Of a DNA stretch of 64,000 bases, positions 908 to 23,074 are shown in pieces. The notes under the pieces were generated by a model. The model had not been told where the DNA came from and did not search any database. It worked only from the letters and a program-made list of their open reading frames with translations. Within the stretch, counting starts at the first letter, position 1. Every line of letters starts with the position of its first letter. The stretch comes from Vicinamibacterales bacterium (GTDB lineage: Bacteria > Acidobacteriota > Vicinamibacteria > Vicinamibacterales > UBA8438). A program made the position numbers and the translations under genes. Location of the stretch: NCBI GenBank assembly GCA_965207675.1, contig CBDBMY010000008.1, forward strand, positions 344,291 to 408,290. The letters are read 5' to 3'.

Positions 908-1702
908 TCAGGCGCGAACCGCGCCGCCGGCGGCGACCGCACGACCAGCGTGCGTCAACTGCTGCGCCGTCGTCCGCCCGGGTACGCGCTCGCCCCGGAC
1001 GATAGACGCCGCGAGGCGGCGAACCGCCGTCAGCGACCGCGGTCGATACCGCGTCTGCTCGACCACCACGTTGATGTGTCGAGTCCCGGACGGGGCCCAC
1101 CTGTGCAGATGCCCGTGCACGTTCACGCAACCTTCCGGAACATCGCGAAGAGGCACATGGGTCAACAGCAACTCCGGGCTGCCCGGCACGTAGACCGTGC
1201 TGTAGATCTCGTCGAAACCCTCGACATGTCCGGCGACCGTGCCGTCGAACTCGTGATTGCCGAGGACCAGCACCTTCCTGCCCGGCGCCGCCCGGAAGCG
1301 CTTCAGCCGACGGCCCGAGAGGCCGCCGATCGTGACATCGCCCAAGAACACGACCGTGTCGCCGGGGTCCACCACCCGCCGCCATGCGCCGAACAGGGCG
1401 TCGTCCATCTCCTCCGGCGTCCAGAAGGGCCTCCCGAAAACGCTGATCGTCATGGCGTGTCCGAGGTGGAGATCGCTCCACAACCAGACGCCGGGATGGT
1501 CCTGCTCGCGCAGTTCGCCCGGCGGCGTGCGCCTTGACGCGGAGAGCAGACACCACAGGCCCTGGCGCTCCTCTGACGCGACACCGAGGTTGCCGACTTC
1601 GTATCGAAGCTCCGTCTCGTACAGGGCTTTCAGACTCTCAGACGTCACGACGTCCACCTCTCCCGGAGAACATACACTCCCTTGGCGGTCGCGCATCCGC
1701 AC
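908..1702 (-). CDS. Calcineurin-like metallophosphoesterase, COG4186-like (MPE1)
   Basis: SDLHLGH, GDTVVFLGDV, VLVLGNHE, LLLTHVP and VNVHGHLH are the phosphoesterase motifs in canonical order. It is a paralog of 3054-3801 and 20533-20960. Alignment with the paralog suggests the true start lies near VTSESLKALYE (~1650). Confidence 0.85.
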   Translation of the reverse strand: MRMRDRQGSVCSPGEVDVVTSESLKALYETELRYEVGNLGVASEERQGLWCLLSASRRTPPGELREQDHPGVWLWSDLHLGHAMTISVFGRPFWTPEEMDDALFGAWRRVVDPGDTVVFLGDVTIGGLSGRRLKRFRAAPGRKVLVLGNHEFDGTVAGHVEGFDEIYSTVYVPGSPELLLTHVPLRDVPEGCVNVHGHLHRWAPSGTRHINVVVEQTRYRPRSLTAVRRLAASIVRGERVPGRTTAQQLTHAGRAVAAGGAVRA

Positions 1703-2121
1703 GATTCGCGGCGACCACTACCTTATCGACCGGGACACGGACGAGGTCGTGCGGCTGGACAAGCGCCCCACGGCGCGGGATCTCGGGCGACGGCAGGCCG
1801 AGGCGGCCGATGCGAAACGCCCGACGGCCCAACACCGCGGCGACCGAGGGGCCCCCGACCGTCCACTGAGGCGGAACCTCCGGGCCGAACGGGACACGCT
1901 CGACCGGATCCCTGTCCGAGCCGTTTCGACAGCTCCGCGCCGCGCCGCGGCCTCGCGGGCCATCAGGGAGAGGTGGCGCAGGTTCTCCTTCCGACCCCGG
2001 CCTTCACCATGCGGTCGAGCTGATGGCGTACGCGCCGTCGAGCTGAACCGGGGCCATCGACGATGCCGCTCCCGAGCCATGTTCGGCGTGGAGGCGCCCG
2101 CCGTTCCGCAGGCTCCCGCAC

Positions 2122-3057
2122 TCACGGCGCCGCCGCAGGCCCGGCGGCGTTCCCGGCCGTGCGGGCCTCGTCCGGCGGGTCGACGTCGATGCCGTCGGCC
2201 GCGATCGCGTCGCGGGCGAGCCCGCAGAAGTCCCGGGCCGTCCCGGCCCACCCGGCCGCGTCGTCGATCGTCGGCTCGGCGGCCCTGTCCGGGTTCCAGT
2301 CGACCTCCGCCTTCCAGGCCTCCCAGAGGGTTCGGATGCGATCTCGCCAACCGGGGTCCAGCACCCCGGGCTCGATCAGGTGCCGCTCGACGCTCGCCGG
2401 GAGGTCCCTGCGGCGCACCACGCTCACGCCCCTCGCGAGGCACCACGCCATGGCCGAGAAGAAGACCGCGTCGAAGGCGGGGCGGGCCGCGATGCTGGCC
2501 GCGATGCCGGGGGCGTCGAACGGCCCGTCCTTCAGCCACTCGATGTGGCGTTCAAGTACCTCGAGGTCGCCCCGGGCCTTCTTCAGCCAGACCGGCACGG
2601 CGTGCCGGATGCCCTTCCGGGTAACCGGCGGGCGCTCGCCCTGCGGTCTGCGCGCCGGCCGGCGGACCGGGTGAATCTGGACGCCCTCGGCCTCGACGTT
2701 CCTCGGGAACGGCAGCTCCCTGTCGATGTCCCGGCGCCAGTCGGCCCCGGTCCGGACCACGACGTTGTGGTCGACGCCGTCGGGGTCGTCGTCGCCGTAG
2801 ATCAGGTCCCGCGCGCGCCGGACGGCGTCCGGGGCTTCTCCGACGAGCACAAGGACATCGACGTCGCTCGCCGGCCCGGCGTCGCCCCGCGCCTTCGACC
2901 CGTAGACCACGAGCCGCTCGAGGAGCCCGCCGGGCGCCTGCTTCAGCCGTTCGAGGTAGCTTTCGAGCCACAGCCTCTCGTCCGTTTCGAGCGCCGGCAA
3001 GCCGCGGGGCTCCGCCGCCGCGCGTCCGCGCCCGGCGACGCCGGGTCGGCCGGTCAA
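2122..3057 (-). CDS. Minimal nucleotidyltransferase (Pol-beta type) fused to a HEPN/KNTase_C-like helical domain
   Basis: LERLVVYGSKARGDAGPASDVDVLVLV matches the GS-x(9-12)-D-x-D NTase motif. The C-terminal ~170 aa are all-helical (WLKKARGDLEVLERHIEW..AFDAVFFSAMAWCLARG..). There is no ATG; a TTG at 3057 overlaps the TGA of the upstream MPE gene (TTGA), so the start is tentative. This is the lower part of track ORF 2122..3933. Confidence 0.65.
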   Translation of the reverse strand: MTGRPGVAGRGRAAAEPRGLPALETDERLWLESYLERLKQAPGGLLERLVVYGSKARGDAGPASDVDVLVLVGEAPDAVRRARDLIYGDDDPDGVDHNVVVRTGADWRRDIDRELPFPRNVEAEGVQIHPVRRPARRPQGERPPVTRKGIRHAVPVWLKKARGDLEVLERHIEWLKDGPFDAPGIAASIAARPAFDAVFFSAMAWCLARGVSVVRRRDLPASVERHLIEPGVLDPGWRDRIRTLWEAWKAEVDWNPDRAAEPTIDDAAGWAGTARDFCGLARDAIAADGIDVDPPDEARTAGNAAGPAAAP

Positions 3058-3801
3058 GGCGCGTCCCCCTGTCCGGCGGCGGTTCCGGCGTCCGGCCAGC
3101 CCTTCGCCCAGGCGATGAAGAGGTCGGTCGTGGCGTTCCCGCCCAGGGGCGCCCGGTCCAGGCGGCGGGCCAGCCTGCGCACGTCCGCCACGGGGATCGG
3201 CCGGTAGCCGATCTGCTCGACGCACACGTTGATCCGGGTGTCGTCTACCGACGTCTTCCGGTGGACGTGCCCGTGGACGTTCACGTAGCCGGCGGGCAGG
3301 TCGTCCAGGGGCACATGGGTGAAGAGCAGGTGGGGCCTCGCCCGCCAGGTGGGCGCAGGCCACCACCGCGAACGCCCGCCGGAGGCGGCGGATGTGGGGG
3401 TGGTCGTGGTTCCCGGCCACGAGGATCTTGCGGCCGGGCCTGCGCCGGAGGCGGTCGATCAGGCCGTCGGTCGGGCGGCCCATCGCGACGTCGCCCAGAC
3501 AGATCACCGTCTCGCGGTCCAGCACGTCGCGCGTCCAGTGCTCCAGCAGGTAGCCGTCGCCGTGGTGGCAGCCCCGGAACGGGCGGCCGAAGACGGCGAC
3601 GCTCGCCCCGTGTTCGAAGTGCGGATCGGAGAACACCCACGTCCGGTGTTCGTCCCGCGGGCGCAACGTCACGCCCAGCAGCCGTCTGGATGCGGCCAGC
3701 ACGGCCGCGGCGGCGTGCCGGTCGTGGGCGGGGATGCGCCCGTCCGCGACCTGGGCGGTCAGTTGCGCCTCGTAGATCCGTTGAAGCTCGAACTCGTTCA
3801 T
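3054..3801 (-). pseudogene. Metallophosphoesterase paralog (MPE2) with one frameshift
   Basis: MNEFELQRIYEAQL..WVFSDPHFEHG..VICLGDV..ILVAGNHD is followed by a frame change near 3325-3335 to ..HLLFTHVPLDDLPAGYVNVHGHVHR..INVCVEQIGYRPIPVADVRRLARRL. The gene is collinear with MPE1. It is split between track ORFs 2122..3933 and 3054..3314. An assembly error cannot be excluded. Confidence 0.7.
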
Positions 3802-3888
3802 GCCCGTTTCATGACGGAACCGTCCGGCCGGCGATCCCAGCGCCTTCGCCGCGGACGGGCGCTGCCCGGACCGCCGCCGCTCGGCCCG

Positions 3889-3933
3889 GGTCCGCACCCA
3901 CGACAGCGCCGCGTGCGCCGACTCCCTCATCAC
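3889..3933 (-). pseudogene. lon: Short Lon protease fragment (segment preceding the Ser box)
   Basis: It encodes VMRESAHAALSWVRT. Nucleotides 3897-3935 are almost identical to 16498-16536 of the intact lon, which encodes VMKESAHAALSWVRA. Confidence 0.6.
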
Positions 3934-3935
3934 GC

Positions 3936-4133
3936 GGCATCAAGGAGAAGGTGCTGGCCGCCCGCCGCGCCGGACTGGCGCGGGTCGTCCTGCCGAAGCA
4001 GAACGAGAGCCGGGGCGAGGACGATCTCGGCGACGACCTGCGGCGCGAGATCGGCGTGCGGTACGTGTCGACGATCGACGAGGCGCTCGATCTGGCGCTG
4101 TCGCCGCCGGCGGCGGGGCAGGCCGAGGGGTAG
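3936..4133 (+). pseudogene. lon: Lon protease C-terminal fragment (Lys box to stop), inverted relative to the adjacent fragment
   Basis: GIKEKVLAARRAGLARVVLPKQNESRGEDDLGDDLRREIGVRYVSTIDEALDLAL aligns position for position with the last ~65 aa of the intact Lon (GVKEKVLAARRCGLAGVILPTANASEVDEKLGEDLLRGIDVRFVSTIDEMLARAL). The Ser box PKDGPSAG is missing. Confidence 0.7.
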
Positions 4134-4216: not shown

Positions 4217-4600
4217 TCAACGCTTCCGTCCGCCGTCGGTGCGTTCCCGTTCGGCGGCGCCCCGTTCCACCGGCTTCCGTGCCCGTTCGAGGGGCGGCCG
4301 ATGCGTCTCCGGCGGGGGCGGGTCCGTCCGGTTCCTCGGCGGGTCGATGTCGGGGTATTGCGTCCTGCGGTCGTCCAATCGTCCGATGAACTCCGCGGGA
4401 TCGAACCCGATGGCCTTCGCCACCTCCATGAACTCGACGACGTCGAGCCGTCTCTCGCCTCCCTCGTACTTGGCGACGAACGACTGGGGCCGGTTCAGGT
4501 GGCCCGCGAGTCGGGCCTGGGTCAAGCCCGCGGCAATGCGCATCTTCTTCAACTGACGTCTGAAGTGAGCGGTTCTGGGCCCGAAGCTTGACCTCGGCAC
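4217..4600 (-). CDS. XRE-family helix-turn-helix transcriptional regulator
   Basis: LKKMRIAAGLTQARLAGHLNRPQSFVAKYEGGERRLDVVEFMEVAKAIG is a classic Cro/C1-type HTH followed by the ..E.G.R.. pattern. The C-terminal tail is Pro/Arg-rich. Confidence 0.85.
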   Translation of the reverse strand: MPRSSFGPRTAHFRRQLKKMRIAAGLTQARLAGHLNRPQSFVAKYEGGERRLDVVEFMEVAKAIGFDPAEFIGRLDDRRTQYPDIDPPRNRTDPPPPETHRPPLERARKPVERGAAERERTDGGRKR

Positions 4601-4870: not shown

Positions 4871-5398
4871 ATGGCCGTGCAGCCGGCATTCGGAACCTCG
4901 GATCACGAAGGAGGACGAACCGTGTACGACATCCTGATCCGTTCACGTCGACACCAACAGCCGCAGCCGCTCCCGAAGGCACGTGTTCGGACTCGCCGCA
5001 ACGCTGTGACCTCGGTTCTCCTCGCCGCGTTCATGGTTCTGCCCGTCGTCGCCAGCGGCCAGAGCGGTCCGGCGGATCGAGCCCGCGAGGCCCCTCCGTC
5101 CGCCGCCGCCCCGACTTCCGCAGCTCTCGACATCGATCGCCTGGTCGCCGCGGCCGCGGATCGCGGCGTCCTGCTCCAACGCTCCCGGCCCGGCCAGGGC
5201 GGCAATTCGAACGCGAACACCATGAGGTGGGTCGGGATCGCCATGCTCGGTGCCGGGGGCCTGTTGGCCGTCAACGGGGCGCTCGCCACCTGCGGCACGA
5301 TCGACAGTGGCGTTTACCGCGAAACCGGCATGTGCGGGGGCCGCGTCATCGTCGGAGGCGGCGTCGCCGCTCTAGGGGCGTGGTTGATGACCCGATGA
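4871..5398 (+). CDS. Hypothetical membrane/secreted protein
   Basis: This is a track ORF. It has a hydrophobic N-terminal segment (VTSVLLAAFMVLPVVASGQ) and C-terminal Gly/Ala-rich hydrophobic helices (MRWVGIAMLGAGGLLAVNGALA, VIVGGGVAALGAWLM). The true start is probably internal. I recognise no family. Confidence 0.4.
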   Translation: MAVQPAFGTSDHEGGRTVYDILIRSRRHQQPQPLPKARVRTRRNAVTSVLLAAFMVLPVVASGQSGPADRAREAPPSAAAPTSAALDIDRLVAAAADRGVLLQRSRPGQGGNSNANTMRWVGIAMLGAGGLLAVNGALATCGTIDSGVYRETGMCGGRVIVGGGVAALGAWLMTR

Positions 5399-5551: not shown

Positions 5552-6460
5552 ATGAGGGCGATCTGGGGTGTACTCGCGGCGAGTGTTCTTGCGTCGGCGG
5601 TGCCCGACGCGGCCTGGGCGCAGGACAGGTTCATCCTCCTCGCGACGAATCGGACGGGCACGATGGAGGACGAACTCAACGCGGCCGGCGCCGACGGGTA
5701 CCGTTTCGTCGGTACCCAGGGCGGCGAGACGGCCTTCGGCGGCAGCGAGGTGGTCGTCATCATGGAGCGCGACCCGGAGGGTCGACGCTACCGCTACATG
5801 CTGTTGGCGACGAGCCGCACGGCGACGATGGAGCAGGAGCTCAACAGCGTCCCCCCGGAGTTCGAAGTCGTCGGCATGACGATCTTCGACTCCACGTTCG
5901 GGGGCGACGAGTCGGCGGTGATTCTGCAGGCCGAGGCGTCCGCGTTCACCACGTCATCGAACTCGTCCTCCGCCACCGCGTCCGGGGGGCGGCCCGACGC
6001 CCCGACGGCTCGGGAGTCGAACATCTACCTCGTTGCGGAGGACGGCTCCCGCCGACTGGTTGCGCCGAGCGCCGTCCGGCGCATCGAGGAGGAAGCCGGA
6101 GGGTTGTTCAGCCGGTCGAAGCTGTTCGCGATCCTCGCCGGGCTCGACGCCCCGACCAGAACCTCAGACCACTATCAGACCTTCGATTTCGAGACGGCGG
6201 ATCGGGGCGCCATCGACGAACTGGTGCTCGTCCGGTTCTACGAAGAGGCCGACTACGGCGAGCGCACGTTCGACGTCCTGCCCGGCGGCGTCAACCTGGA
6301 AGCGGTGATTCCACTCAGCACCGAGCTGCTCGACGACGGGATGTACCGCCTCCGGCCGGCCGAGCCCCTCGGTCTCGGCGAGTTCGGCTTCATCCGCCTC
6401 GAGACGGGTGAGGACATCACCCGGGGCTTGACGGTTCACGATTTCGGGGTTGAGCCCTGA
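5552..6460 (+). CDS. Secreted protein with internal duplication
   Basis: ATG 5552 follows GGAGGTG. The signal peptide is MRAIWGVLAASVLASAVPDAAWAQ. There is a duplicated module: RFILLATNRTGTMEDELNAAGADGYRFVG and YRYMLLATSRTATMEQELNSVPPEFEVVG. Confidence 0.7.
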   Translation: MRAIWGVLAASVLASAVPDAAWAQDRFILLATNRTGTMEDELNAAGADGYRFVGTQGGETAFGGSEVVVIMERDPEGRRYRYMLLATSRTATMEQELNSVPPEFEVVGMTIFDSTFGGDESAVILQAEASAFTTSSNSSSATASGGRPDAPTARESNIYLVAEDGSRRLVAPSAVRRIEEEAGGLFSRSKLFAILAGLDAPTRTSDHYQTFDFETADRGAIDELVLVRFYEEADYGERTFDVLPGGVNLEAVIPLSTELLDDGMYRLRPAEPLGLGEFGFIRLETGEDITRGLTVHDFGVEP

Positions 6461-6489: not shown

Positions 6490-7275
6490 ATGGTGCGGGC
6501 CGACCAAAGGTCAAGGGAGATGACGAAAGAGCAAGGACAATCGGAAGCTCATTCGACCGGACTGAGGACACCGGCCACGACACCGGCCATGCCTTCCGGC
6601 GGCGCCGACACCGAGGCCGATGCGCCCGGCAGGGTCGTCGCGGCGGTGAACGCTAGCACTGACCGCATCCTCCGAGCCTTCGACGAGAAAATCAGGTACG
6701 ACACGACCAAACAGCAGGCAATCGACCGTCAGCACGCCGAACTCGTGGACCACCGCCGCGATCTGGTTGCTCAAGCCGCCGCCCCGTTCGTCTTCGGCAT
6801 GATTCACCACCACGCAGAGATCGAAAAGCTTATCGTGGCGGTGCGCGAGGAATCCGCACCGCCCTCGCCGCCCGGCCGGCCGCGCCCGCTGGCGCGGATT
6901 CTGCCGTGTCTGACCCGCGCGTGGAATCGGTGGACCATGCCCCGGCCCCGTGGCACGAACCCAAGCGGCGGCGATGTTCCGCCCGTCCGAGCCGAAATGC
7001 CCGCGGCCAAGGTCTGCGAGTTGTTGTCGAGTCTGCAGGAGGACATCGAGCACGTGCTGGGCGAGAACGGCGTCGCCGCGTACCGCCCCGAAGTCAGCCA
7101 ACCGTTCGATCCGGAACGTCACCGGGTCGTAGGCAAGACGCGGCCAACCGACGACGAAGCCCGTTCCGGCACCATCGCTGCCTGCCGGGGGCCCGGGTTC
7201 GAGCGTGGAGGACGGATTCTCGTAAAGGCACCCGTGTCGGCCTATCGGTACGAACGGACGTCGCCGGATTCCTAA
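6490..7275 (+). CDS. GrpE-like nucleotide exchange factor (divergent)
   Basis: The C-terminus (..VLGENGVAAYRPEVSQPFDPERHRVVGKTRPTDDEARSGTIAACRGPGFERGGRILVKAPVSAYRY) fits the GrpE beta-domain pattern (G-V..I..G..FDP..H.A....G.I....GY...R.LR.A.V.V). The N-terminal part is helical (FDEKIRYDTTKQQAIDRQHAELV). There is an unusual Pro-rich insert. The gene sits immediately upstream of an Hsp70 gene. An alternative start is at 6520. Confidence 0.65.
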   Translation: MVRADQRSREMTKEQGQSEAHSTGLRTPATTPAMPSGGADTEADAPGRVVAAVNASTDRILRAFDEKIRYDTTKQQAIDRQHAELVDHRRDLVAQAAAPFVFGMIHHHAEIEKLIVAVREESAPPSPPGRPRPLARILPCLTRAWNRWTMPRPRGTNPSGGDVPPVRAEMPAAKVCELLSSLQEDIEHVLGENGVAAYRPEVSQPFDPERHRVVGKTRPTDDEARSGTIAACRGPGFERGGRILVKAPVSAYRYERTSPDS

Positions 7276-7343
7276 AGGCTCCGATCCGACACCTGCGGCC
7301 AACACGGTCCACCGACCGGCAGTCATCGAAAGGACGTCACGAC

Positions 7344-9032
7344 ATGGCCACGGCCGACAAGAGCAACCCCGTCTTCGGCATCGACCTCGGGACCACGTAC
7401 TCGTGCATAGCGTACGTCAACGACGCTGGCAAGACCGAGGTCATCCCCAACTCAGACGGCGACCTCACCACGCCTTCCGTCGTCTACTTCGAGGATGCCC
7501 GGAACGTCGTCGTGGGCCAAACCGCCAAGGACGCGCTGCCGACGAATCCCGAGCGAGTGATCTCCCTGGTCAAGAGACGGATGGGAGACAAGGACGCGAA
7601 GTTCGAGGGCGTGACCGACGCGCCGCTGACGCCGCACGAGATATCGGCGCACGTTCTCCGGAGGCTCGTCCAAGACGCGCAGGACTACACACGTCGGGAG
7701 GACCCGATCACAGACGTTGTCATCACCTGCCCCGCCTACTTCGGATTCGCAGAGAAGGAGGCAACCCGCCAGGCTGGGGAAATCGCCGGCCTGAACGTGC
7801 GCCACGTCATCCCGGAACCGACCGCCGCGGCCATCTCCTACGGCATGATCGACGCGTCCCGCGACGAGACGGTGCTCGTGTATGACCTCGGAGGGGGCAC
7901 CTTCGACGTGACCGTTATCGACGTAAAGAAGGGCGACATCGAGGTCGTTTGTGTGGACGGAGACCACGATCTCGGCGGTGCCAACTGGGATGAGGACGTC
8001 GCAACGTGGTTTGCCGAGAAGTTCTCCAAGGAGCACCATACACCGACCACCAAGCTGATGAGCGACGCCGAAGCTTGGCAGGAATTGCTCGCATTGGCAG
8101 AAAAGGCCAAGAAATCCCTGACGGCCAGGAACAAATATACCGCGAGAATAACCCACGGCACCAAGCGATCGCAGGTCGAGCTCACCCGGGAAGAATTCGA
8201 CCACATCACCGGCGGCCAGCTTGAAACCACCATCATGGCGACGAAGAACGTCCTCAAGCATGCGCGGGAGAAGGGCCGCAGCAAGTTGGACAAAATACTA
8301 TTGGTCGGCGGGTCGACGTATATGCCTCAGGTCATGGAGCGCCTGAAGCGGGAGTTTCCCGAGGTTCCCGACATCGGCCTGCTCGACCCGAACCAAGCGG
8401 TGGCCAAGGGTGCCGCGGTGTTCGGCTACAAGTGCTATCTCGACGACGCGGTCGCGCGCAAGGTCTCGGAGCAGACGGGCGTTGAGGCTCCGGCGGTCGA
8501 GGATCTGTCCGATGCGGTGCGCGAACGCGCGGAGGCGAGCGTCGCGGCCGAAGAAGGGCTGCAACTTGCCCGAATGCAGAGCTTGACACGCAAGGAGATC
8601 CAAAACGTGACATCCAAGAGTTTCGGCACCAAGGTCTTCGACAGCGATACGGGCACAAGCTACGTCCACAACCTGATCGTGGCGGACGACAAGGTGCCGA
8701 CGGAGGTGACCGAGGGCTTCTTTACCGTGGAGGAAAACCAGACCGGGGTCGACGTGGTGTGTCTGGAGAACATTCTGCGTCAATCGGGGCGGGTCGATGT
8801 CGATGCATGTACCGAGATCGGGAAAGCGGAGCTGAAGTTCGCCAGACCTCTCCCCGCGCAGTCCCCGGTGCAGATTCGCTATGCGCTGTCCGCCGATGGG
8901 CTTCTCTCCGTGCACGGGAAGGACCCGACCACCGGAGGTGAAGTTCAGATGGAGATCGCAACCGCAGCGATCCTGAGCGCCGGCGAGGTTGAGGAAAAGA
9001 GACGCCGGAGCGGGGCGATGAAGGTGAGCTGA
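7344..9032 (+). CDS. Hsp70-family ATPase lacking the helical lid (non-canonical DnaK paralog)
   Basis: GIDLGTTYSCIAY, DLGGGTFDV, LLVGGSTYMPQV and DPNQAVAKGAA are the Hsp70 ATPase motifs. A beta-sandwich substrate-binding domain is present (..NLIVADDKVPTEVTEGFFTVEENQTGVDVVCLEN..PAQSPVQIRYALSADGLLSVHGKDPTTGGE). The protein ends ~25 aa after it, with no lid and no EEVD. GAAAGGA lies upstream of the ATG. Confidence 0.95.
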   Translation: MATADKSNPVFGIDLGTTYSCIAYVNDAGKTEVIPNSDGDLTTPSVVYFEDARNVVVGQTAKDALPTNPERVISLVKRRMGDKDAKFEGVTDAPLTPHEISAHVLRRLVQDAQDYTRREDPITDVVITCPAYFGFAEKEATRQAGEIAGLNVRHVIPEPTAAAISYGMIDASRDETVLVYDLGGGTFDVTVIDVKKGDIEVVCVDGDHDLGGANWDEDVATWFAEKFSKEHHTPTTKLMSDAEAWQELLALAEKAKKSLTARNKYTARITHGTKRSQVELTREEFDHITGGQLETTIMATKNVLKHAREKGRSKLDKILLVGGSTYMPQVMERLKREFPEVPDIGLLDPNQAVAKGAAVFGYKCYLDDAVARKVSEQTGVEAPAVEDLSDAVRERAEASVAAEEGLQLARMQSLTRKEIQNVTSKSFGTKVFDSDTGTSYVHNLIVADDKVPTEVTEGFFTVEENQTGVDVVCLENILRQSGRVDVDACTEIGKAELKFARPLPAQSPVQIRYALSADGLLSVHGKDPTTGGEVQMEIATAAILSAGEVEEKRRRSGAMKVS

Positions 9033-9093
9033 TGTTCGAAGGGGCGGCGCCAGTTGCGCCGGCCGTGGAGAACCGGCGCTGAAGGTGCAATTG

Positions 9094-10065
9094 ATGGTGG
9101 CGCAGAAGCTGCGGATGCTGCTTGAGACGCTGGAGTGCCCGGACGTCTACCTATTCCTCGGCGTAGATCGGAGCGCCCCGCTGGAAGAGCTGCAGGCGGC
9201 CGCTGAGAAGAAGTACGTCAGTACACATAACCAGAGCTCGCGAAACGCGGTGACCCGGGCCGCTGGCGAATTGGCGGGGCTGTGCAAGTCGGACATCTTC
9301 AGGAACGCGCGGACCAAGGCGGCGTACGACCGGGAGCTGGACCGGCAGGACCCGCAGCGGCAGGCCGCCGCGGCGCAGCAGCGGCAGCAAGCTTGGGCGC
9401 GAGTCACCGGTGCCGTCGCCGCCGCTGCGGACCGGGTGGTCAGGTACTCCGGGCGCGTCTCCGCCGGGGGAGCCGCGCTGATAGTCGCGGGGACGGTTCT
9501 GGGCACAGGTTTCGATGCGCCTTCGGGCGTATCGATACACAGGCTGGGAGTGCTGGCCTTTCCGTGCGGTTTCACGGCATTCCTCTACCGGGGACCCCGG
9601 CACCACACCGCCGTTGTCGCGGCCGGGGGATTCCTTGCGGTCGTGCTCGGAATCGTTGCGCGAGCCATTCATTCTTCCTTGACCGCGCAAGATGTGGCCG
9701 GCGGCGATGGGTCTCTGATGGAACTGCTCGGTCTGCTGAGACTGGTGGGCGGATTGGCTCTTCTGAGCGCGTTGGCGTCGTTCGTGTTCAGGGAGTCCTG
9801 GCACATCAGGGTCGGCGCCGCGGCGAAACCCTTTATGGAGTGGTGGCTTGCGACGATAGCCATTACCGGGAATCCGCTGATCATGGCCGGCGTCACGGGA
9901 ATGGCGTTTGCGCTGACCTTCGGTCTGACGGCCGGAGTCGTCATGACCTTTCTCTTCGGGGGCGGCGCGGACGAAAGGGTCCGAGCGGCGACCAGCGCGA
10001 CCGCATACGTTTCCGGCTTCCTCATCGTTGCAGGCGTTCTCCGGCGGCTCTTTTCGCGTCGCTGA
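9094..10065 (+). CDS. Polytopic membrane protein with N-terminal HPD-less J-like domain (paralog 1)
   Basis: DVYLFLGVDRSAPLEELQAAAEKKYVSTHNQSSRN..AGLCKSDIFRNARTKAAYDRELD follows the J-domain helix II / loop / helix III layout, with HNQ where HPD is expected. About six hydrophobic helices follow. Confidence 0.8.
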   Translation: MVAQKLRMLLETLECPDVYLFLGVDRSAPLEELQAAAEKKYVSTHNQSSRNAVTRAAGELAGLCKSDIFRNARTKAAYDRELDRQDPQRQAAAAQQRQQAWARVTGAVAAAADRVVRYSGRVSAGGAALIVAGTVLGTGFDAPSGVSIHRLGVLAFPCGFTAFLYRGPRHHTAVVAAGGFLAVVLGIVARAIHSSLTAQDVAGGDGSLMELLGLLRLVGGLALLSALASFVFRESWHIRVGAAAKPFMEWWLATIAITGNPLIMAGVTGMAFALTFGLTAGVVMTFLFGGGADERVRAATSATAYVSGFLIVAGVLRRLFSRR

Positions 10066-10216
10066 GGGGTCGGCTGGCGCATGAGGTCGCGGCGGACCCG
10101 AGGCCGGGACCGAGAGCGGTCCCGCTCGGCGTGAAGACCGAGATGACAACGAGGCAACCACCGGCGGGCGGAGCGTGGTCACGGGCGGAGTGCTGTCGGG
10201 ACGAGGAGTATGAGTG

Positions 10217-11383
10217 ATGGTGCCGCCAAAGGTATGGACACTGCTCGAGGCCGTGGGATGCGAAGACATCTACGGGTTCCTGGGCATGGAACGCGACGCT
10301 CCCTTGGAAGAGCTGCGGGCCGCAGCCGAGAGAAAATACGAAGCGATACACAACCAGAGTGCGAGAAGCGAAGGTGCGAGAGTCGGTGCGGCCCTGGCCG
10401 GATTGTGCAAGTCGACTATATTCAGGGATGCGGAGACGAGGAGCGGGTACGACGACGAGGCGGCGCTGCGGGGCGAAAGGCGTGCGGACCCTGCAGGTCA
10501 GCAGCTTGTCACGGCGGAGGAACGACAAAGGGCGGCAGCGGCGGCCGCGAGCGCGGCGGCTGCGGGCGTGGCGAGTGCGGTGGCCGAGGGGGCGAGAAGC
10601 GCGACCGCGAGCGCCGTGCGGTACGTCGAGGAGTACTGCAGAGGCATTTCGGCTACGGGGGCGGTTTTGGTCGCCGTGGGAGCGGCTCTGGCGGCGGGAG
10701 TCAGCGCACCGGCGGGCGCGATCGTCCTCGGCCTGGGAACGGCGATCTTTCCGTGCGGGTTCGCGGCGGTTATGTATAGGCGGTCCCGGGACTGGATAGT
10801 GCGCGTCGGCGGGGCCGGGCTTGTACTGGTCACGCTGGGCATCATGGGCGAGGGCTATTCAGCCGCAGCGATTGCGGAAGGTAGGGCGAATCCGGTGGTC
10901 TTGGCCCTGGTGGGCGGCTCGAGGCTGTTGGGCGGACTGGTCCTCGTCGCGGGCTTGGCGTCGTTCGGGCTGAAGGAAGCTTGGCACGTGAAGGCCGCCG
11001 ACACGACGGGCCCCGCCGTGGAGTGGTGGCAAGCGAGGATCGGCGCGGGGAACCCGGCGATCGTGCTGGGCGCCGCGGGGTTGGCGTTTGCGGCCGCGAT
11101 GGCGATCGCCGTCCGCCCCGTCGTGAGTATCGTTTTCGGCTCCGGGGGCGCGGGATTGGTGGAGTCCGTGGTGTCGGCGGCGGCCTCTTACTCTGCTTTA
11201 CTCCTTGGTGGAGGCGTCGCGTGGCGGTTGGCCAAGCGCTACGGGGGGGTAACGGAGCGTGGTGGGGACACTCTCCAATGCGGGAGGTGCGGAACGCGGT
11301 CGGCTCGCAGCAAGTGTCGGGATGGCGACGGCTTCAGAGTTACGTATCGCTGTGCCGTCTGTGGGGCCCGCATGGAGGGGTAG
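10217..11383 (+). CDS. Polytopic membrane protein with HPD-less J-like domain and C-terminal zinc ribbon (paralog 2)
   Basis: The J-like domain is DIYGFLGMERDAPLEELRAAAERKYEAIHNQSARS..AGLCKSTIFRDAETRSGYDDE. The membrane region is paralogous to that of the previous gene. The C-terminus reads CGRCG..CAVCG. A GGAG RBS is present. Confidence 0.8.
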   Translation: MVPPKVWTLLEAVGCEDIYGFLGMERDAPLEELRAAAERKYEAIHNQSARSEGARVGAALAGLCKSTIFRDAETRSGYDDEAALRGERRADPAGQQLVTAEERQRAAAAAASAAAAGVASAVAEGARSATASAVRYVEEYCRGISATGAVLVAVGAALAAGVSAPAGAIVLGLGTAIFPCGFAAVMYRRSRDWIVRVGGAGLVLVTLGIMGEGYSAAAIAEGRANPVVLALVGGSRLLGGLVLVAGLASFGLKEAWHVKAADTTGPAVEWWQARIGAGNPAIVLGAAGLAFAAAMAIAVRPVVSIVFGSGGAGLVESVVSAAASYSALLLGGGVAWRLAKRYGGVTERGGDTLQCGRCGTRSARSKCRDGDGFRVTYRCAVCGARMEG

Positions 11384-11609
11384 ACGACACGTGGGTGCCG
11401 TTAGATTCGGTCTGGGTGGGGCCCATTCGGGTAGAGAACTCAGTTATGGTGCTTCTGGCCGCGGTGGCTTATCGACCGGGGGCAATGACGACGCGGGGCC
11501 CGCTACTCGGCAGCGGTTTGGCGCGTCGGCCGGATGACGGGATGCAGGGGATCTGTGGAGATCACGGAGAAGGGACTCGGTCGGAGAAAGGCGCAAGAGG
11601 GTACTAACT

Positions 11610-13367
11610 ATGGTGCCGTCAAAGGTTTGCCAGCTGCTCGAAAAGGTTGGATGCGACGACGTATACGAGTTCTTGGCATGCGAGCGGAGCGCGCCGCTGG
11701 AAGAGCTGCGTGAGGCCGCGGACGCCAAGTATAGGCAGATACACAACCAGAGCTCGTCAACGGACGCGCAGAAGGCCGCGAGAGACCTGGCGGGGCTGTG
11801 CAAGGCCGCGATATTCATGGACGCGGCGAGCAAGAGGGCATATGACGAGGAAACCGACACGCGGCGGAAGCCCGAGGGAGGCGTGGTCTCCGCGGTCGTG
11901 GCAGCGGTGGTCGTGGTCGCGGTTGTGGTCGGCGCCGCGTGGATGGTTTGGCAGGGCGCCGTTTGGGTTGTCGACCGCGTAGAGGGCTGGGTGTCTCGGC
12001 CGGTGGAAGAGGGACCCGTGGAACCTCCAGCGCCTCTGCCCCATGATCCTCCCGACCCGGAACCGGAAGCGGAACCGGAAGATGGACCGCAGGCCGAGGA
12101 GCGACGGCTCGGTCTCGATAGGGCTGCCCGAACACGAGTGCAGGTCGCGTTGTCGGAGGGGGATTACGATCCCGGTGAGGCCGACGGGTTGTTGGGCGAG
12201 CGCAGCAGGAATGCCCTCCGGGCTTGGCAGCGGGACCGCGATCTTGAGGTAACGGGGTATCTGACCCGCGAGACCGCGGAGCGGTTGGGCGCCTTCGATC
12301 TGGACCCGGATATTGGGACGGCGGAAATTGATGCGGGTACGTTGACTATCCGAGGGGATCCGTTGAGTTCGATTTCAGTCGATGGGGCGTTCGTCGGCAG
12401 CGTGCCGGAGGAGTCAGGGGTCGTGGTCGTTCGGGAAGTCGAGCCAGGGAGTCATTTCGTCGTTGCGCGGCGTGAAGGGTACAGGACGGTGGAGAGGGTC
12501 GTGGATGTCGTCCACGGTCGGGCAGAGGTCGTGGACGCAACCCGCGGGGGGATGTCGGGGCTGCTGGCAGTGTCGGCGGACGTGGCCGGGGCGTTGCTTC
12601 GCATCAACGACGGTGAAGAGCGGGCCCTTCCAGTGACGGATCTCGAGATCGCGCCCGGCTCGCACGATCTGGCGGTAAGCCGCGAAGGGTACAGGCCGGT
12701 CAAGGACCGCATCGACGTTCGTCCGGGTCAGCTCGTCAGCCGGAACGTCATCCTCGAGGCGATCCCGCATGAGGAGCGCGTCATGGATGCTCTTGACCCC
12801 GCGCTGGCGCACTTCCGGGCGGGGGACTATCGGGCGGTCGTCGACGCGGTGCGGTCTGTCCTCGATGTCGTCGGGAATTCCGTGCTTGCGTACTGGTTGC
12901 TCGGGGTTGGTCTTTACGAGCTCGGGGAGTTCGTAGAGAGCGTGCAGCCGTTGACCATGGCCATCGGTCTCGGTGCCGAAGTGGTACTGCCCGCCAAGCA
13001 TCGCCACGGAGGGGGAGGCTTCCGGGAGGGATTCTGTACCGGCACACTCACGTTGAGCCTCGACGAGATTGCGTTCGTCTCGGTCGACGATCCGGGTCAC
13101 GGTTTTGCCGTGGCTCCGGACAAGATGACGGAGCCCACCGTCGCGCAGTCCGTCGGCGGCTTCCCGTACCGTTTGAACACCGGCGTGCGAGACCTTGAGC
13201 GCGGCATAGAGCGGAACAATTTCGACTTCGTCCACTGGAAAGCTGAGCCTCAGGCCGCGGACCCCGATTCTCTGCGGCTGGTCGTTCTCGGGTGTCCGGA
13301 CTGTGACGCGTCGATGTTCGTTCAGCATGCCCTCATGACCACCGTGATCCGCGGTGCGAGCCAGTGA
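11610..13367 (+). CDS. Single-pass protein: HPD-less J-like domain, TM, PG-binding, 2x PEGA, TPR-like, C-terminal beta domain (paralog 3)
   Basis: The J-like domain is DVYEFLACERSAPLEELREAADAKYRQIHNQSSST..AGLCKAAIFMDAASKRAYDEE and the TM segment is VVSAVVAAVVVVAVVVGAAWMVW. DGLLGERSRNALRAWQRDRDLEVTGYLTRET resembles PG_binding_1. GSHFVVARREGYRTVERVVDV and GSHDLAVSREGYRPVKDRIDV resemble PEGA domains. Confidence 0.85.
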   Translation: MVPSKVCQLLEKVGCDDVYEFLACERSAPLEELREAADAKYRQIHNQSSSTDAQKAARDLAGLCKAAIFMDAASKRAYDEETDTRRKPEGGVVSAVVAAVVVVAVVVGAAWMVWQGAVWVVDRVEGWVSRPVEEGPVEPPAPLPHDPPDPEPEAEPEDGPQAEERRLGLDRAARTRVQVALSEGDYDPGEADGLLGERSRNALRAWQRDRDLEVTGYLTRETAERLGAFDLDPDIGTAEIDAGTLTIRGDPLSSISVDGAFVGSVPEESGVVVVREVEPGSHFVVARREGYRTVERVVDVVHGRAEVVDATRGGMSGLLAVSADVAGALLRINDGEERALPVTDLEIAPGSHDLAVSREGYRPVKDRIDVRPGQLVSRNVILEAIPHEERVMDALDPALAHFRAGDYRAVVDAVRSVLDVVGNSVLAYWLLGVGLYELGEFVESVQPLTMAIGLGAEVVLPAKHRHGGGGFREGFCTGTLTLSLDEIAFVSVDDPGHGFAVAPDKMTEPTVAQSVGGFPYRLNTGVRDLERGIERNNFDFVHWKAEPQAADPDSLRLVVLGCPDCDASMFVQHALMTTVIRGASQ

Positions 13368-13430
13368 GTGCGCGTTCCGCGTTTCACCGAGGACGGTGGG
13401 GTTTGAAATGCAGAGGGCGAAAACGAAGGA

Positions 13431-14075
13431 ATGGGATTGCCAGGGTCGTTAGCGGCATTTGGGCACGAAACAGGGCATGGACCAATGCAGGAGGACGCCG
13501 TGGGTGATCTGGCTGCGTACAAGGCCAAGCTGAGGCAAATCGATTGGCTTCGTACACTCGTGTTTATCTGGTTTCGCGGTGGCCTATCGATGTTAATCTG
13601 GGTGAGTCCGCTCATGATTTTGGTTTTTCGCAGCTCGCCTCAGGAGGGTCAAGGTTCCGCGGAGGTAGCGGGGCTTGTAGGACTAACCCTGTTTTTTGTT
13701 GTTGTGGGCCCACCCTTGGCTCTATTTTTGGGTATTGGAAATCAGGTCGACGCGGCAGCGACTCGCCTGTACCGTCGCGCTATGGCGTTCTTGGGTCAGT
13801 TTTTCATACTGTTTACTTGGCCGGTGATTTTGATGGCGTTTGCGTTCTGGGGTATCTTGCTTGTCGGCGGGTTCTTGTTTCGGATTTTCTGCGTTCTGCT
13901 GGTCTGCGTAGGTGATCCTCTTCTGATCCTGGCGCGTCGGTTGTTGCCGGGAGCACTGCCGTTTGACGTTCGGCCGGTACTGTTTCAACGTTATGTCCTT
14001 GTTTGGTCGAGGAGTGAGGCCGACACGACTTGGCAATTCGTCAGACTGGCGGACTGGTGGCGGGGGGACGGGTAG
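13431..14075 (+). CDS. Multi-pass membrane protein, no family recognised
   Basis: This track ORF lies in a clearly less GC-rich stretch. It has long hydrophobic helices (LVFIWFRGGLSMLIWVSPLMILVF, GLVGLTLFFVVVGPPLALFLGI, FFILFTWPVILMAFAFWGILLVGGFLFRIFCVLLVCV). It begins 63 bp after the third J-like gene on the same strand. Confidence 0.5.
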   Translation: MGLPGSLAAFGHETGHGPMQEDAVGDLAAYKAKLRQIDWLRTLVFIWFRGGLSMLIWVSPLMILVFRSSPQEGQGSAEVAGLVGLTLFFVVVGPPLALFLGIGNQVDAAATRLYRRAMAFLGQFFILFTWPVILMAFAFWGILLVGGFLFRIFCVLLVCVGDPLLILARRLLPGALPFDVRPVLFQRYVLVWSRSEADTTWQFVRLADWWRGDG

Positions 14076-16088: not shown

Positions 16089-19000
16089 TCAGGCCGGTTG
16101 CGCCGTCGGCGGCGCCAGCGCCCGCGCCAGCATTTCGTCGATCGTGGACACGAAGCGCACGTCGATCCCCCGCAGCAGGTCTTCGCCGAGCTTCTCGTCG
16201 ACCTCACTCGCGTTCGCGGTCGGCAGGATCACCCCGGCGAGTCCGCAGCGGCGGGCGGCCAGCACCTTCTCCTTGACGCCGCCGACCCCGAGCACGTCCC
16301 CCGAGAGGGTGATCTCGCCGGTCATGGCGAGGTCGCGGCGCACGGCACGCCCGGTGAGGGTGGAGACCAGCGCGGCGACCATCGCCACGCCCGCCGACGG
16401 TCCGTCCTTCGGGATGCTGCCGGCCGGCACGTGCAGGTGCACCTCGGCGGCCTCGTAGAACCCGGGGGCGACGCCGTAGCGGGTGGCGTTGGCGCGCACC
16501 CACGACAGCGCCGCGTGCGCCGACTCCTTCATCACGTCACCCAACTGTCCGGTGAGGGTCAGCGCACCGCCGCCGGGCATCCGGCTGGCTTCGACGAACA
16601 GCACGTCGCCGCCGGCGGGGGTCCACGACAGCCCCATCGCCACGCCGGGGCGCTTCATGCGCCCCGACGGCGCTTCGTCGGCGTGCGGTGGCCGGCCCAG
16701 CATGTCGGCGACCGCCGGCTCCGTGATCTCGACCGGCGACTCGTCTCCCCCGGCCCGCCGCAGCGCCACCTTGCGGCAGACCGCGCCGATGCGGCGGCCG
16801 AGTTCGCGCACGCCCGCCTCGCGCGTGTAGCCGCGAATCAGGGCGTGCAGCGCCCCGTCGGTGAAGCGGACCCCCTCGGCCGCGAGGCCGTTCTCGTCGA
16901 GCTGCCGGCCGACCAGATGCGCCCGGGCGATCTCGAGCTTCTCGTCCTCCGAGTAGCCCGGCAGCTCGATCTTCTCCAGGCGGTCGCGGAGCGGAGCCGC
17001 TATCCGGCTCCACTCGTTCGCGGTGGCGACGAAGAACGTCTCCGACAGGTCGAACGGCACCTCCACGTAGTTGTCGACGAACTTCTTGTTCTGTTCCGGG
17101 TCGAGCACCTCGAGCAGCGCCGACTCGGGGTCGCCCCCGCTGTTCGAGACCCGCGAGATCTTGTCGACCTCGTCCAGCAGCAGCACCGGGTTCTTCGAGC
17201 CGATTCTGACGAGCTCGCGCACGAGCCGGCCCGGCTGCGCGGCGCGCCACGTGCGGTTGTGTCCGCGCAGCTCCGTCCCGTCGCTCATTCCGGCGAAGGA
17301 CATCTTGGCGAACTTCCTGCCCATGGCGTCCGCGATGCCCTGCGCAAGCGACGTCTTGCCGACCCCGGGGGGGCCGACGAGGCAGAGAACCGTCCTCGGG
17401 CTGCCGCCGAGTTTCCGCACCGCCAGATCCTCCAGCAGCCGCGCCTTCGCCTTGGCGAGCCCCCAGTGCCCCTCGTCCAGCAGCTCGCGGGCGCGCCGCT
17501 GGTCGATGGGTTCCTCGCGGCGGGCGTTCCACGGCAGGCCGGTGAGGCACTGGAGATAGGTGAACCGGTCGCCGTAGTCGGCGTCGCCCGGCGACCTCGA
17601 CAGCATCAACTGCAGCTCGCGCTTGGCGTGCCGTCGCGCCGCGTCCGGCAGGCCGCCGCGGTCGATCGCCGCCCGGATCCCCTCGACGCCGGGCAGGACT
17701 TCGCCGCCGCCCTTCCCCGCGCCGAGCACCTCCCGGACCGTGTCCGCCGTCACCGCGGTCGTCTCCGCGGCGCCGCCGCTCGACGCCTCCAGTCGGAGCG
17801 CCGTCCGCCGGCAGATCGCCGAGACGCCGCGGTCGAGGTCCCGCACGCCCATTTCGTTCGCGTGGTCGCGGATCATCCCCCGCAGCGCCTCGTCTTCGAA
17901 CGCGATCAGCCCGCCCGTCAGTCCGTGGTCGCGGATGCGCGCCGGCACGAGGATCCGCTTGGCGATCTCGAACTTCTCCTCCACCGTGTAGCCGGCGATC
18001 TCGATCGCCTCCACGCGGTCCCGCAGCACCGCGGGAATATCGCCGAGCACGTTCGCGGTGGCGATGAAGAAGACCTCCGACAGGTCGAACGGCAGGTCCA
18101 CGTAGAGATCGTGGAATGCGGCGTTCCGGGTCGGATCGAGCGCGTCGAGCAGCGCCATGCCCGGCGCCCAGCCCACCTTGTCGATCTCGTCGAGGAGGAA
18201 CACGGGATTCCTCGCGCCGATTCTCTGCAACTGCCGGATGATCGCCCCGGGGTGCGACGCGGCATAGTCGCGTCGGGCGCCCCGGACGTCGGCGACCTCC
18301 GTCAAGCCGTTGCACGACATCTCGGCGAATCTGCGGCCGAGGGCCCGGGCGACGCCCGCCGCCAGCGAGGTCTTGCCCACGCCCGGCGGCCCGACGAAGC
18401 AGAGAATCTGTCCCCGCGCGTCACCCTTACGACGGCGCACGGCCAGGTGTTCGAGGATGCGATTTTTCGCGTCCCGGAGTCCGACATGCCGTTCGTTCAG
18501 GACGCTCCGGGCGCGCTCGACATCGATCGTCTCCGGCCCGCCGCCGCGCCACGGCAGGTCGGCCAGCACGAGGAAGTACTCCCTGACTTTCTCGGCTGTG
18601 TCCGCCGACAGCTTGTCGAGCTCGGGCCTCAACCGGTTCAGCACCTCCCGGGGCATGCCGCACGCCTCGATCCTGCCGCGGAGTCTCTTGGTCGGGTCCT
18701 CCAACTGCGCCTGGACGTCGTCAAGCCTGGTCTTCAGAAGCCGGCCGCCGAGGGAGTCGTCCCGTCGGCGTTCCGATGCCTGCCGCCAGTGCTCCTCCCT
18801 CGCCTTCAGGCCGCGTTCGTAGGTCTTCTCCGGGCCCGCCCCCTCGAGCGCGTCGACCATGAACGCGTTCAGCGCGCGCACGCGTTCGCCCGGATTGAGG
18901 ATGTCGAGCCACCGCTGCTGGAGCGGGACCGGAACGTCGAGGTCGGCGATGCGCCTGATCAGGCTGACCGCGATGAAGTCCGCGGCCACGTCGATGGGGA

Positions 19001-19595: not shown

Positions 19596-19805
19596 TTCGA
19601 TAACTCTCCAGCGGTTCTCGAACCGCTCGGACATTCGATGAAAGGGCCAGCCGGCGCGCTCCGAGCCTCGCGGATGGACGCAGAGCGCACGGAACAACCG
19701 GGCTGCGCGCGAGCCGCCCTCCGCCACGTTGGGCGTTGGCAAAGATCGCCAGCAAGGGCAACCGAACGACTTCCCCGGATTCAGGAATTCGGACGTGTTC
19801 GTCCG

Positions 19806-22533: not shown

Positions 22534-23074
22534 CGGGGTAGGAGGTGCGGCCTGTGAGGTTGGGAACGGAGTGGGAGCATTGGAATGATGTGCTCGTCCT
22601 TGTCGAAGGACTCGTCGGCGAGATGGAGAAGGGACCACGCGGGAAGGCGGCGGCAATAGGGACTTGAACCGAGGCCGACCGACGGACCAGAGGAGCTACG
22701 GGCACAATGGGCAATAGGGCCGTCGGCTGAAGCTCGGTGGCGGGGCTGGGCCATTGAACTGGCCACAAAACAACACGGCGCCATGGATAGCGGCATGGTG
22801 GACAGGCGGCCGTTTCGAAGGGGGGTTGGTCCGGGAGGGAACCCCGGGAACGCCGGTGGATGCGGGCAGTACCTGGCGGGCGGCGGCGGTGCTCTTCACG
22901 ACGAGTCCGGGATGGCCGGCGACACCCACTCGCGGGCAAAGTGGTCGACGACGAGCGTGTTGCCGTCGTCGCACCGGGGACAGGGCGGCAACGAACGGCC
23001 GGTCAGCGCCTCGTAGCGGTCCCGATAGTCGGTGATGGCCGGGCGGGCGCGCTCTGCCGATGGCAGCGGGGAGG

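Follow-up and report, generated by a model that had tools for sequence, protein, structure and literature searches.

A predicted five-gene operon with a lidless Hsp70 and membrane-anchored, HPD-less J-like proteins in a Vicinamibacterales genome

Layout of the locus

A block of five co-directional genes at positions 6490-13367 of a 64,000-nucleotide stretch of DNA from a Vicinamibacterales bacterium (Acidobacteriota), the whole of which is called the window in the following, encodes a GrpE-like protein, an Hsp70 without helical lid and three paralogous proteins with a divergent J-like domain that lacks the His-Pro-Asp (HPD) motif. As judged from its sequence, the block constitutes a five-gene operon for a self-contained, dedicated Hsp70 cycle and not a housekeeping dnaK-grpE-dnaJ operon, and appears to derive from a family of GTPase-centric conflict systems that has been described computationally. 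The open reading frames (ORFs) of g1 to g5 span 6490/6520-7275, 7344-9032, 9085/9094-10065, 10214/10217-11383 and 11610-13367, all on the + strand, show coding-type GC patterns and are separated by gaps of approximately 52-226 bp. The G+C content of the block is 62-68% compared to 72-75% in the flanks, and the G+C content at third codon positions (GC3) is 0.76-0.81 for g1-g5 compared to 0.83-0.93 for the neighbouring genes. Family searches detected Transposase_31, IstB_IS21, two rve integrases, a Mutator transposase and a phage integrase in the window.

An earlier note on this DNA had proposed a dedicated, aberrant Hsp70 kit of six closely spaced co-directional genes, distinct from housekeeping dnaK-grpE-dnaJ, of lower GC than its flanks and set in mobile DNA. 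Spacing, composition, mobile setting and the dedicated nature of the kit are upheld for the GrpE-like gene, the Hsp70 gene and the three J-like paralogs. The sixth gene, a hydrophobic multi-transmembrane ORF of 214 aa at 13431-14075 (+; g6), is doubtful as a member and probably lies outside the unit. It has no family match in Pfam, PADLOC and NCBIfam, shows a GC3 of 0.60, below the range of g1-g5, is seen only in near-identical strains and is absent from every other related locus examined. Furthermore, it carries an indel in strain L005 (the comparison assembly being of low coverage and the strain divergence small), and its exact sequence is absent from the public protein collection, in which four neighbours from the same contig occur.

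The exchange factor and the lidless Hsp70

The first gene, g1 (6520-7275, +), is predicted to encode a GrpE-like nucleotide-exchange factor. Its ORF opens at 6490, and the alignment of homologs favours M11 (6520) as the probable start. The Pfam GrpE family matches the C-terminal half only, corresponding to the C-terminal beta domain, with an E-value of 5.8e-7 and 29.8 bits against a gathering cut-off of 25.8, and the same family (PF01025) is recognized on nearly all of 46 homologs, in the alignment of which a Pro/Arg-rich insert of 44 aa is lineage-specific. By this family match, the operon possesses the exchange factor of a canonical Hsp70 system, with the activity being predicted.

The second gene, g2 (7344-9032, +), encodes a lidless Hsp70 of 562 aa, as assigned by Pfam HSP70 and by PDB and clade alignments. 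The protein is composed of a nucleotide-binding domain (NBD; aa 1-361), a clade-specific helical insert (aa 362-416) that precedes the linker and is seen as a gap of 43 columns opposite DnaK in the clade alignment, a linker of the form L-x-I-x-N and the beta part of the substrate-binding domain (SBD), with the C-terminus located approximately 20 residues into lid helix A. Pfam HSP70 matches over the NBD with an E-value of 1e-99, and the best NCBIfam match, the DnaK model, reaches 341 bits against a cut-off of 648. The clade alignment consisted of 106 full-length relatives of g2 (50-100% identity) and Escherichia coli DnaK, the reference sequence of which was verified against its expected length of 638 aa and at nine landmark residues; a separate PDB alignment agrees with it over the NBD segment that holds positions 167-173. 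No substitution of D8, K70, E171, D194, T199 or D201 (DnaK numbering) occurs in g2 or in any of the 106 clade members, and the SBD retains its hydrophobic pocket. With this conservation, g2 is predicted to be a catalytically intact Hsp70 with ATPase activity.

The J-like domain and its membrane-anchored carriers

The products of g3, g4 and g5 share an N-terminal domain of 87 aa, which is 53-54% identical in pairwise comparison and has HNQ at aa 45-47 in place of HPD. The corresponding codons are located at 11742-11750 (+) in g5, with the equivalents starting at 9226 in g3 and 10349 in g4. No Pfam match was obtained in the first 90 residues of g3, g4 and g5, and no Pfam DnaJ match at E<=1. An AlphaFold2 model of the domain derived from the three sequences has a predicted local distance difference test score (pLDDT) of 87.8 and places helices at residues 18-22, 30-45, 52-68 and 72-86 in the pattern of a J domain, with an extra N-terminal helix. 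Upon comparison of the model with the PDB by Foldseek, almost all of the top 50 matches were J domains, most at a probability of 0.7-1.0, and the best J-domain alignments showed a probability of 0.96-1.00 and a root-mean-square deviation of 2.2-2.8 Å over approximately 64 columns. Equally, nine of the 12 best PDB matches of a profile of the three domains were J domains, and the profile alignment to DNAJA3 sets H45-N46-Q47 on His-Pro-Asp. Taken one by one, the Foldseek and profile matches have weak E-values (0.16-1.5), as expected for so short a domain (approximately 65 residues).

Relatives of this domain are rare. An exhaustive profile search of 1.84 billion representatives recovered only 93 J-like clusters, and a word-index search for homologs of the 90-aa domain gave no match. 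One of the clusters, P0196 at the margin, is a bona fide HPD J-protein (E 1e-10); HPD is absent from all other clusters, which display loops such as IHNQS, IQNKG, E[IL]RRxGxKD and similar. The J fold of the model, the PDB matches and the rare HPD-less clusters therefore argue for an HPD-less branch of the J-domain fold that is both small and divergent, so that the J partner expected in a canonical system is present as a fold, with the motif HNQ where HPD would be found. The domains joined to the J-like domain in other members of its family include double zinc ribbons (15 of 79), Lcl_C (8), PG_binding_1 (7) and PEGA (6), besides TPR, TIR (2), ankyrin (2), fn3 (2) and TonB_C (1) domains, which reads as a sensor/effector-like repertoire. 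P0199 and one further cluster combine the J-like domain with zinc ribbons, a TIR domain and an Lcl_C-type domain in one protein; through these TIR fusions the J-like family is linked to a classical immune effector.

In the window, three predicted architectures carry the domain. g3 (9094-10065, +; 323 aa) consists of the cytoplasmic J-like domain (aa 1-87), an Ala/Gln-rich linker and approximately six transmembrane (TM) helices, and is paralogous to g4 (E 3e-59). g4 (10217-11383, +; 388 aa) combines the J-like domain and approximately six TM helices with a C-terminal zinc ribbon of the type CxxC-x20-CxxC (CGRC-x20-CAVC; nucleotides 11279-11362), an architecture also found in the family clusters P0170, P0171 and P0176. 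g5 (11610-13367, +; 585 aa) has the J-like domain (aa 1-87), one TM helix (aa 92-110) and a periplasmic part with PG_binding_1 (173-226), two PEGA domains (approximately 254-383), TPR and a PH-like domain (386-585). The AlphaFold2 model of this C-terminal region shows a TPR and a PH-like fold (pLDDT 86.7), with PH domains matched in the PDB by Foldseek at a probability of 1.0, and invariant HRH, C, H and CxxC residues are conserved among homologs in the g5-type PH-like domain. The three paralogous adaptors are thus predicted to present an HPD-less J fold at the inner membrane face.

With respect to the individual components, the earlier note had read the first gene as GrpE-like, the second as an Hsp70 with intact ATPase motifs and a beta-sandwich SBD without helical lid, and the remaining three as carriers of a degenerate, HPD-less J domain expected to model as a J-type helical bundle; the family matches, alignments and models agree on each point. 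The architectures of the three adaptors were likewise recognized correctly, with the PH-like domain of g5 having been missed.

In the sister strain L001 (99.8% identical; related loci are referred to by L numbers), the sequence diverges at window position 10750, where an ISL3-type element truncates g4 to 208 aa (L001:12874-13500). In L002 and L003, the TPR and PH-like module (HRH...C) is a separate secreted protein of 467 aa encoded upstream of the GrpE-like gene (L002:7717-9120, L003:4929-6332), and the J-like protein ends in TonB_C.

A replaced contact between J domain and Hsp70

In DnaK, Arg167 pairs with Asp393, Asp481 and the aspartate of HPD, and DnaK R167H suppresses DnaJ D35N (PMC7289447). 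Among the 106 clade members, position 167 is Tyr (88), Ser (12), His (5) or Phe (1) and never Arg, with His being present in g2; position 170 (Asn170 of DnaK) is Pro and position 393 (Asp393 of DnaK) is Asn in 106/106, and the VLLL linker of DnaK is replaced by L-x-I-x. The codons for His-Val-Ile-Pro in 'GLNVRHVIPEPT', at 7803-7814 (+), hold the positions of DnaK Arg167 (His) and Asn170 (Pro). Since Arg167 pairs with HPD, both sides of the canonical switch have therefore been replaced together in the clade. In the few loci in which both partners can be read, the loop type of the J-like domain also tracks residue 167, as His or Ser occurs with IHNQS and Tyr with IQNKG, IHSKG or IQNMG, a covariation suggestive of a co-evolved pairing. 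With HPD lost and the contact residues of the Hsp70 replaced, the pair therefore looks like a private chaperone circuit, and these sequence features suggest a co-evolved J/Hsp70 interface insulated from housekeeping DnaK/DnaJ.

The acidic loop that is bound by helix II of canonical J domains is four residues shorter and less acidic in the g2 clade, and helix II of the J-like domain is approximately neutral in charge. A charge reversal between helix II and the acidic loop, which had been considered, was set aside, the shortened loop and the nearly neutral helix giving a modest signal only. Equally, the view that His154 of g2 directly mirrors the DnaK R167H suppressor in nature was dropped, His being in the minority (5/106) and Tyr being usual; the claim was therefore widened to the loss of Arg167.

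Conservation and relation to GTPase-centric conflict systems

The order GrpE-like, Hsp70, J-like gene is found in every independent related locus examined. Independent loci without GTPase genes comprise L002/3, L006/12, L007, L008/13, L009, L010, L011, L140 and L141 from Vicinamibacterales and other metagenome-assembled genomes, and the triad is intact in at least nine of such loci with an Hsp70 identity of 64-93%. A scan of genome contigs with the GrpE-like alignment, conducted with narrow peptide patterns, gave six loci, and a scan of metagenome contigs with a DNA pattern for V-I-P-E-P-T-A-A gave 51 clade loci. The GrpE-like gene is located directly upstream of the Hsp70 gene in all genome loci and in 39/39 of the metagenome loci whose sequence extends far enough; the synteny proposed in the earlier note is hereby confirmed. 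The number of J-like genes is three in the window, two in L006 and L140 and one in the other loci, with the commonest partner being g5-like, that is a J-like domain, a TM helix, PG_binding_1/PEGA/TPR and a C-terminal domain. No frameshifts occur in g1-g5 between strains. The neighbours of the related loci include integrases, insertion sequence (IS) elements, Fic, PIN and HTH genes and one Cas gene.

The closest described relative is the HSP70/GrpE 'second theme' of the GAP1-N2-type GTPase-centric conflict systems, a purely computational description (PMC7159879; Kaur, Burroughs, Iyer, Aravind, eLife 2020). In this theme, a DnaJ-type domain is carried by an FNIII/TPR protein, frequently accompanied by another Hsp70 without SBD, and a membrane or cell-wall orientation has been proposed by the authors (PMC7159879). 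Two loci, L004 and L014 (Thiomargarita), encode Hsp70s approximately 52% identical to g2 together with GAP1-N2/GAP1-M, a DO-GTPase, an Hsp70-vWA paralog and a large ZnR/TPR/FNIII protein with two J-like domains. In the metagenome loci, a gene for an Hsp70-vWA and/or FN3/J-like protein is located downstream in 22/23 cases, and GTPase and GAP1 genes are present in 6/6 loci with at least 7 kb of downstream sequence; GAP1-N2/GTPase loci are thus the main context of the g2 Hsp70 clade in metagenomes. The theme shares with the window the Hsp70 clade (50-55% identical, approximately 558 aa, lidless, with VIPEPTAA and a residue other than Arg at position 167), the GrpE-like gene directly upstream and a subsequent protein with a homologous HPD-less J-like domain. 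In fact, the profile of the J-like domains of the window matches the FN3/J proteins of GAP1-N2 loci with E-values of 1e-4 to 1e-10, and PEGA and PG-binding domains also occur there.

On the other hand, GAP1, ZnR/DO-GTPase and Hsp70-vWA genes of the theme are missing from the window and from nine related loci. A phmmer search with the L004 and L014 proteins found no GAP1 or GTPase homolog in L001-L003, in L005-L011 or anywhere in the 64-kb window, the Pfam tables of L012, L013, L140 and L141 contain no GAP1 or GTPase, and the window contains no second Hsp70. Furthermore, the J-like domain of the window resides on polytopic, zinc-ribbon or PG_binding/PEGA/TPR/PH-like modules and not on the soluble ZnR/TPR/FNIII protein of the parent, up to three J-like paralogs are present, unlike in the theme, and the host belongs to the Acidobacteriota (Vicinamibacterales), outside the phyla listed in PMC7159879. 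The operon is accordingly best read as a GTPase-less, membrane-anchored derivative of this computationally described theme, a form seen to date in genomes of the Vicinamibacterales type. The designation of the operon as an undescribed system in the earlier note needs to be narrowed, as PMC7159879 already covers this Hsp70 clade together with GrpE and a J-like fusion protein; the designation holds for the GTPase-less envelope form, on which no paper was found in the literature.

Comparison with other Hsp70 systems

The HscC-DjlB/DjlC and grpS-sglK systems had previously been put forward as the nearest analogies, and neither can be retained as such. E. coli HscC (sequences from NC_000913.3) is, like g2, a specialised Hsp70 paralog with its own membrane-anchored J proteins encoded adjacently, and both proteins share the deletion of an NBD segment (DnaK approximately 82-103). 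However, g2 is only 32% identical to HscC, compared to 36% to DnaK, and HscC keeps Arg167, Asn170, Asp393 and a short lid, so that HscC was rejected as the family of g2. DjlB and DjlC differ by the retained HP(E) motif and a C-terminal TM anchor, and a GrpE gene is not linked to HscC. In the Myxococcus grpS-sglK pair, a GrpE-like gene equally precedes that of an Hsp70 paralog, whose phenotype is of a non-heat-shock kind and related to the envelope; however, SglK is a canonical, PRK00290-type DnaK that rescues an E. coli dnaK mutant (PMC8265645), whereas g2 is far below the cut-offs of the DnaK models, and SglK was rejected as well. A third candidate, CnuD of the CoCoNuT systems, is an Hsp70-like protein with degenerate ATPase motifs and proposed RNA binding that is linked to McrBC-type GTPases (PMC11090510). 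It resembles g2 as an Hsp70-family protein recruited to a predicted defence system and was rejected as its family, since g2 has lost none of the catalytic residues and is accompanied by GrpE and J-like partners.

Beyond bacterial paralogs, an analogy is offered by eukaryotic organelles. In the mitochondrial import motor (mtHsp70, Pam18, Pam16, Mge1) and in Sec63/BiP, Hsp70 is recruited to the membrane by tethered J proteins. These machines share with the window the combination of an Hsp70 and a GrpE-type factor with membrane-tethered J or HPD-less J-like proteins, as an analogy only. mtHsp70 and BiP are canonical, with Arg167 and a lid, and an HPD-bearing J protein is always present alongside the J-like one; in the window, on the other hand, no translocon is linked.

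Surroundings of the operon

The remainder of the window is a mosaic of mobile elements. ORFs at 22696-23388, 27365-28396, 29321-30661, 34375-36228, 52359-55694 and 58131-59342 match IstB_IS21, two rve integrases, a Mutator-family transposase, a UvrD/AAA_19-like helicase of 1111 aa and a tyrosine integrase, respectively. Just upstream of g1, a gene at 5552-6460 (+) encodes a secreted protein of 302 aa that contains an internal duplication of the segment 'LLAT(N/S)RT.TME.ELN' and has no Pfam match, preceded by a gene for a small membrane protein at 4871-5398 (+); both products are known only from near-identical strains. Further upstream and divergent, an XRE-type HTH_31 gene is located at 4217-4600 (-). 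HTH_31 or HTH_3 genes occupy the equivalent position in L013 and L140, for which reason the gene is a possible regulator. At the left end of the window, Metallophos and NTP_transf_2 genes (908-3933, -) lie beside a Transposase_31 gene; homologous Metallophos-like genes are found in L140 on the opposite side of the Hsp70 block.

Convergent to the block, an unusual Lon-like protease of 1217 aa with two AAA+ modules and Lon_C is encoded at 16089-19742 (-), and a Lon_C fragment is present in inverted orientation on the other side of the block at 3934-4133 (+), with 79% nucleotide identity between 3934-4115 and 16101-16282. A 99-bp tandem repeat (19801-20265; 4.7 copies, 93% matches) is located immediately upstream of the start of the Lon gene. 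In strain L001, another double-AAA Lon, of 1393 aa, is encoded immediately upstream of the window, and the 65%-identical locus L140 shows the same frame of Lon fragment, HTH gene, Hsp70 block, Metallophos genes and double-AAA Lon. As a system component, the double-AAA Lon was rejected because it is missing from most related loci. A Peptidase_M48 gene follows the J-like gene in L140 (14354-16018), in L141 (13353-14063 and 15915-16904, the gene being split by an IS66 element) and in L142 (15356-16369, of a different, HtpX-like type). No M48 homolog was found in the window or the other related loci, and the M48 peptidase was equally rejected as a component, being missing from most loci.

Proposed function and alternative explanations

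The interpretation favoured here, which is held with moderate confidence, is a role in envelope-linked conflict or surveillance, in which the Hsp70 would gate membrane proteins through a private J interface. The GrpE-like factor and the lidless Hsp70 are placed in the cytoplasm, with the adaptors g3-g5 offering their J-like domain at the inner membrane face. This domain would dock on the Hsp70 via a co-evolved interface characterized by the loss of HPD, the replacement of Arg167, Asn170 and Asp393 and the shortened acidic loop; as both sides of the interface are changed, the module should neither use nor serve housekeeping DnaJ/DnaK. Upon ATP hydrolysis and GrpE-driven exchange, the Hsp70 might bind and release segments of the membrane adaptors or of their partners, with fast kinetics expected in the absence of a lid, and the Hsp70 cycle would thereby set the conformation or oligomeric state of membrane proteins. 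g5 might report the state of the cell wall, and a membrane-perturbing output would most plausibly be provided by the polytopic g3 and g4. Overall, the module would serve in envelope surveillance or in conflict (defence), a role inherited from the GAP1-N2 parent and consistent with the thresholding logic proposed for the parent systems. A more far-reaching version, considered quite unlikely, sees in the HPD-less J domain and the Arg167-less lidless Hsp70 an orthogonal pair within an ATP-driven transmembrane device that would couple cytoplasmic Hsp70 cycles via the adaptors to periplasmic PG-binding/PH-like/TonB_C modules; the outcome might be mechanical or conformational energy passed on to the envelope, as in an ATP-powered analogue of TonB or of the mitochondrial Pam motor, or gated pore-forming paralogs acting as an abortive-infection switch triggered by the chaperone.

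Several observations weigh against a surveillance or conflict function. The module contains no recognisable enzymatic effector, g3 and g4 are assigned an effector role because they are polytopic, which is the sole basis, and since most related loci have a single J-like protein, a split into sensor and effector is not general. The covariation of residue 167 with the loop type comes from approximately six independent loci, and an HPD-less J domain may be unable to stimulate the ATPase at all, by analogy with Pam16-type J-like proteins. Furthermore, L141 lies among housekeeping genes, and a search of 2.9 million viral contigs with a clade-specific DNA signature gave four chance matches, with no Hsp70 and no true homolog. 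PADLOC-DB v2 has no match for g2-g6 and for g1 only ZorA at an E-value of 0.039, which is noise, so that the cluster is uncatalogued there, as the earlier note had supposed. Finally, no experimental work on systems of the window type or on the parent GAP1-N2 systems was found in the literature.

The main rival, possible if rather unlikely, is a dedicated envelope-biogenesis or quality-control chaperone without a role in conflict, whose adaptors would bring in the Hsp70 to assist the insertion, assembly or extraction of specific envelope proteins or of a machine associated with the cell wall. J proteins tethered to a membrane are classical markers of sites of translocation or assembly, with DjlA, Sec63/BiP and the Pam18/Pam16/mtHsp70/Mge1 motor as models, and the periplasmic modules (PG_binding_1, PEGA, TonB_C) bind the cell wall or the outer membrane; however, no translocon or assembly genes are linked to the operon. 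The M48 peptidase downstream in three loci, the Lon-type protease that flanks two loci and the housekeeping context of L141 would fit such a chaperone, whereas its patchy distribution, the lower GC and the flanking mobile elements would not. The IS element that disrupts g4 in the sister strain, with no sign of compensation, equally speaks against this rival, as do the sister clade inside GTPase/GAP1 conflict-type loci and the TIR fusions in the J-like family.

That the operon is a decaying remnant of a GAP1-N2 system, which has lost its GTPases and is non-functional as a unit, is very improbable. The GTPase, GAP1 and Hsp70-vWA genes are indeed missing, IS elements are nearby, with one disrupting g4 in strain L001 and one interrupting the M48 gene in L141; yet the GTPase-less triad has stayed intact in all the independent loci mentioned above, all catalytic residues are invariant, frameshifts between strains are absent from g1-g5, and diversification of the J-like partners has yielded paralogs and new architectures that are themselves conserved. 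The reading of the block as an ordinary stress operon, in which another copy of dnaK-grpE-dnaJ would serve general folding, can hardly be entertained despite the Hsp70 and GrpE family matches and the DnaK paralogs carried by many bacteria (PMC11019930), since g2 remains far below the cut-off of the NCBIfam DnaK model, lacks the lid and has replaced R167, N170 and D393 as well as the VLLL linker, and its partners are membrane proteins without Pfam DnaJ match, HPD and the Zn-finger/CTD client-binding domains.

Implications

The contact between HPD and Arg167 is treated as the universal switch of the Hsp70 machinery. In an entire clade found in nature, each partner of this contact has now been seen to be exchanged, with the ATPase residues and a dedicated exchange factor being kept; such a joint loss of HPD and Arg167 is unexpected in the chaperone field. 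With only five genes (approximately 7 kb), the module is small enough to be transferred and tested, so that its function is experimentally approachable. To a conflict module predicted by computation only, the operon adds a form from Acidobacteria that spans the envelope and is free of GTPases. Provided that it is functional, the J/Hsp70 pair would show how an insulated chaperone circuit evolves and would offer an orthogonal J/Hsp70 pair for engineering.

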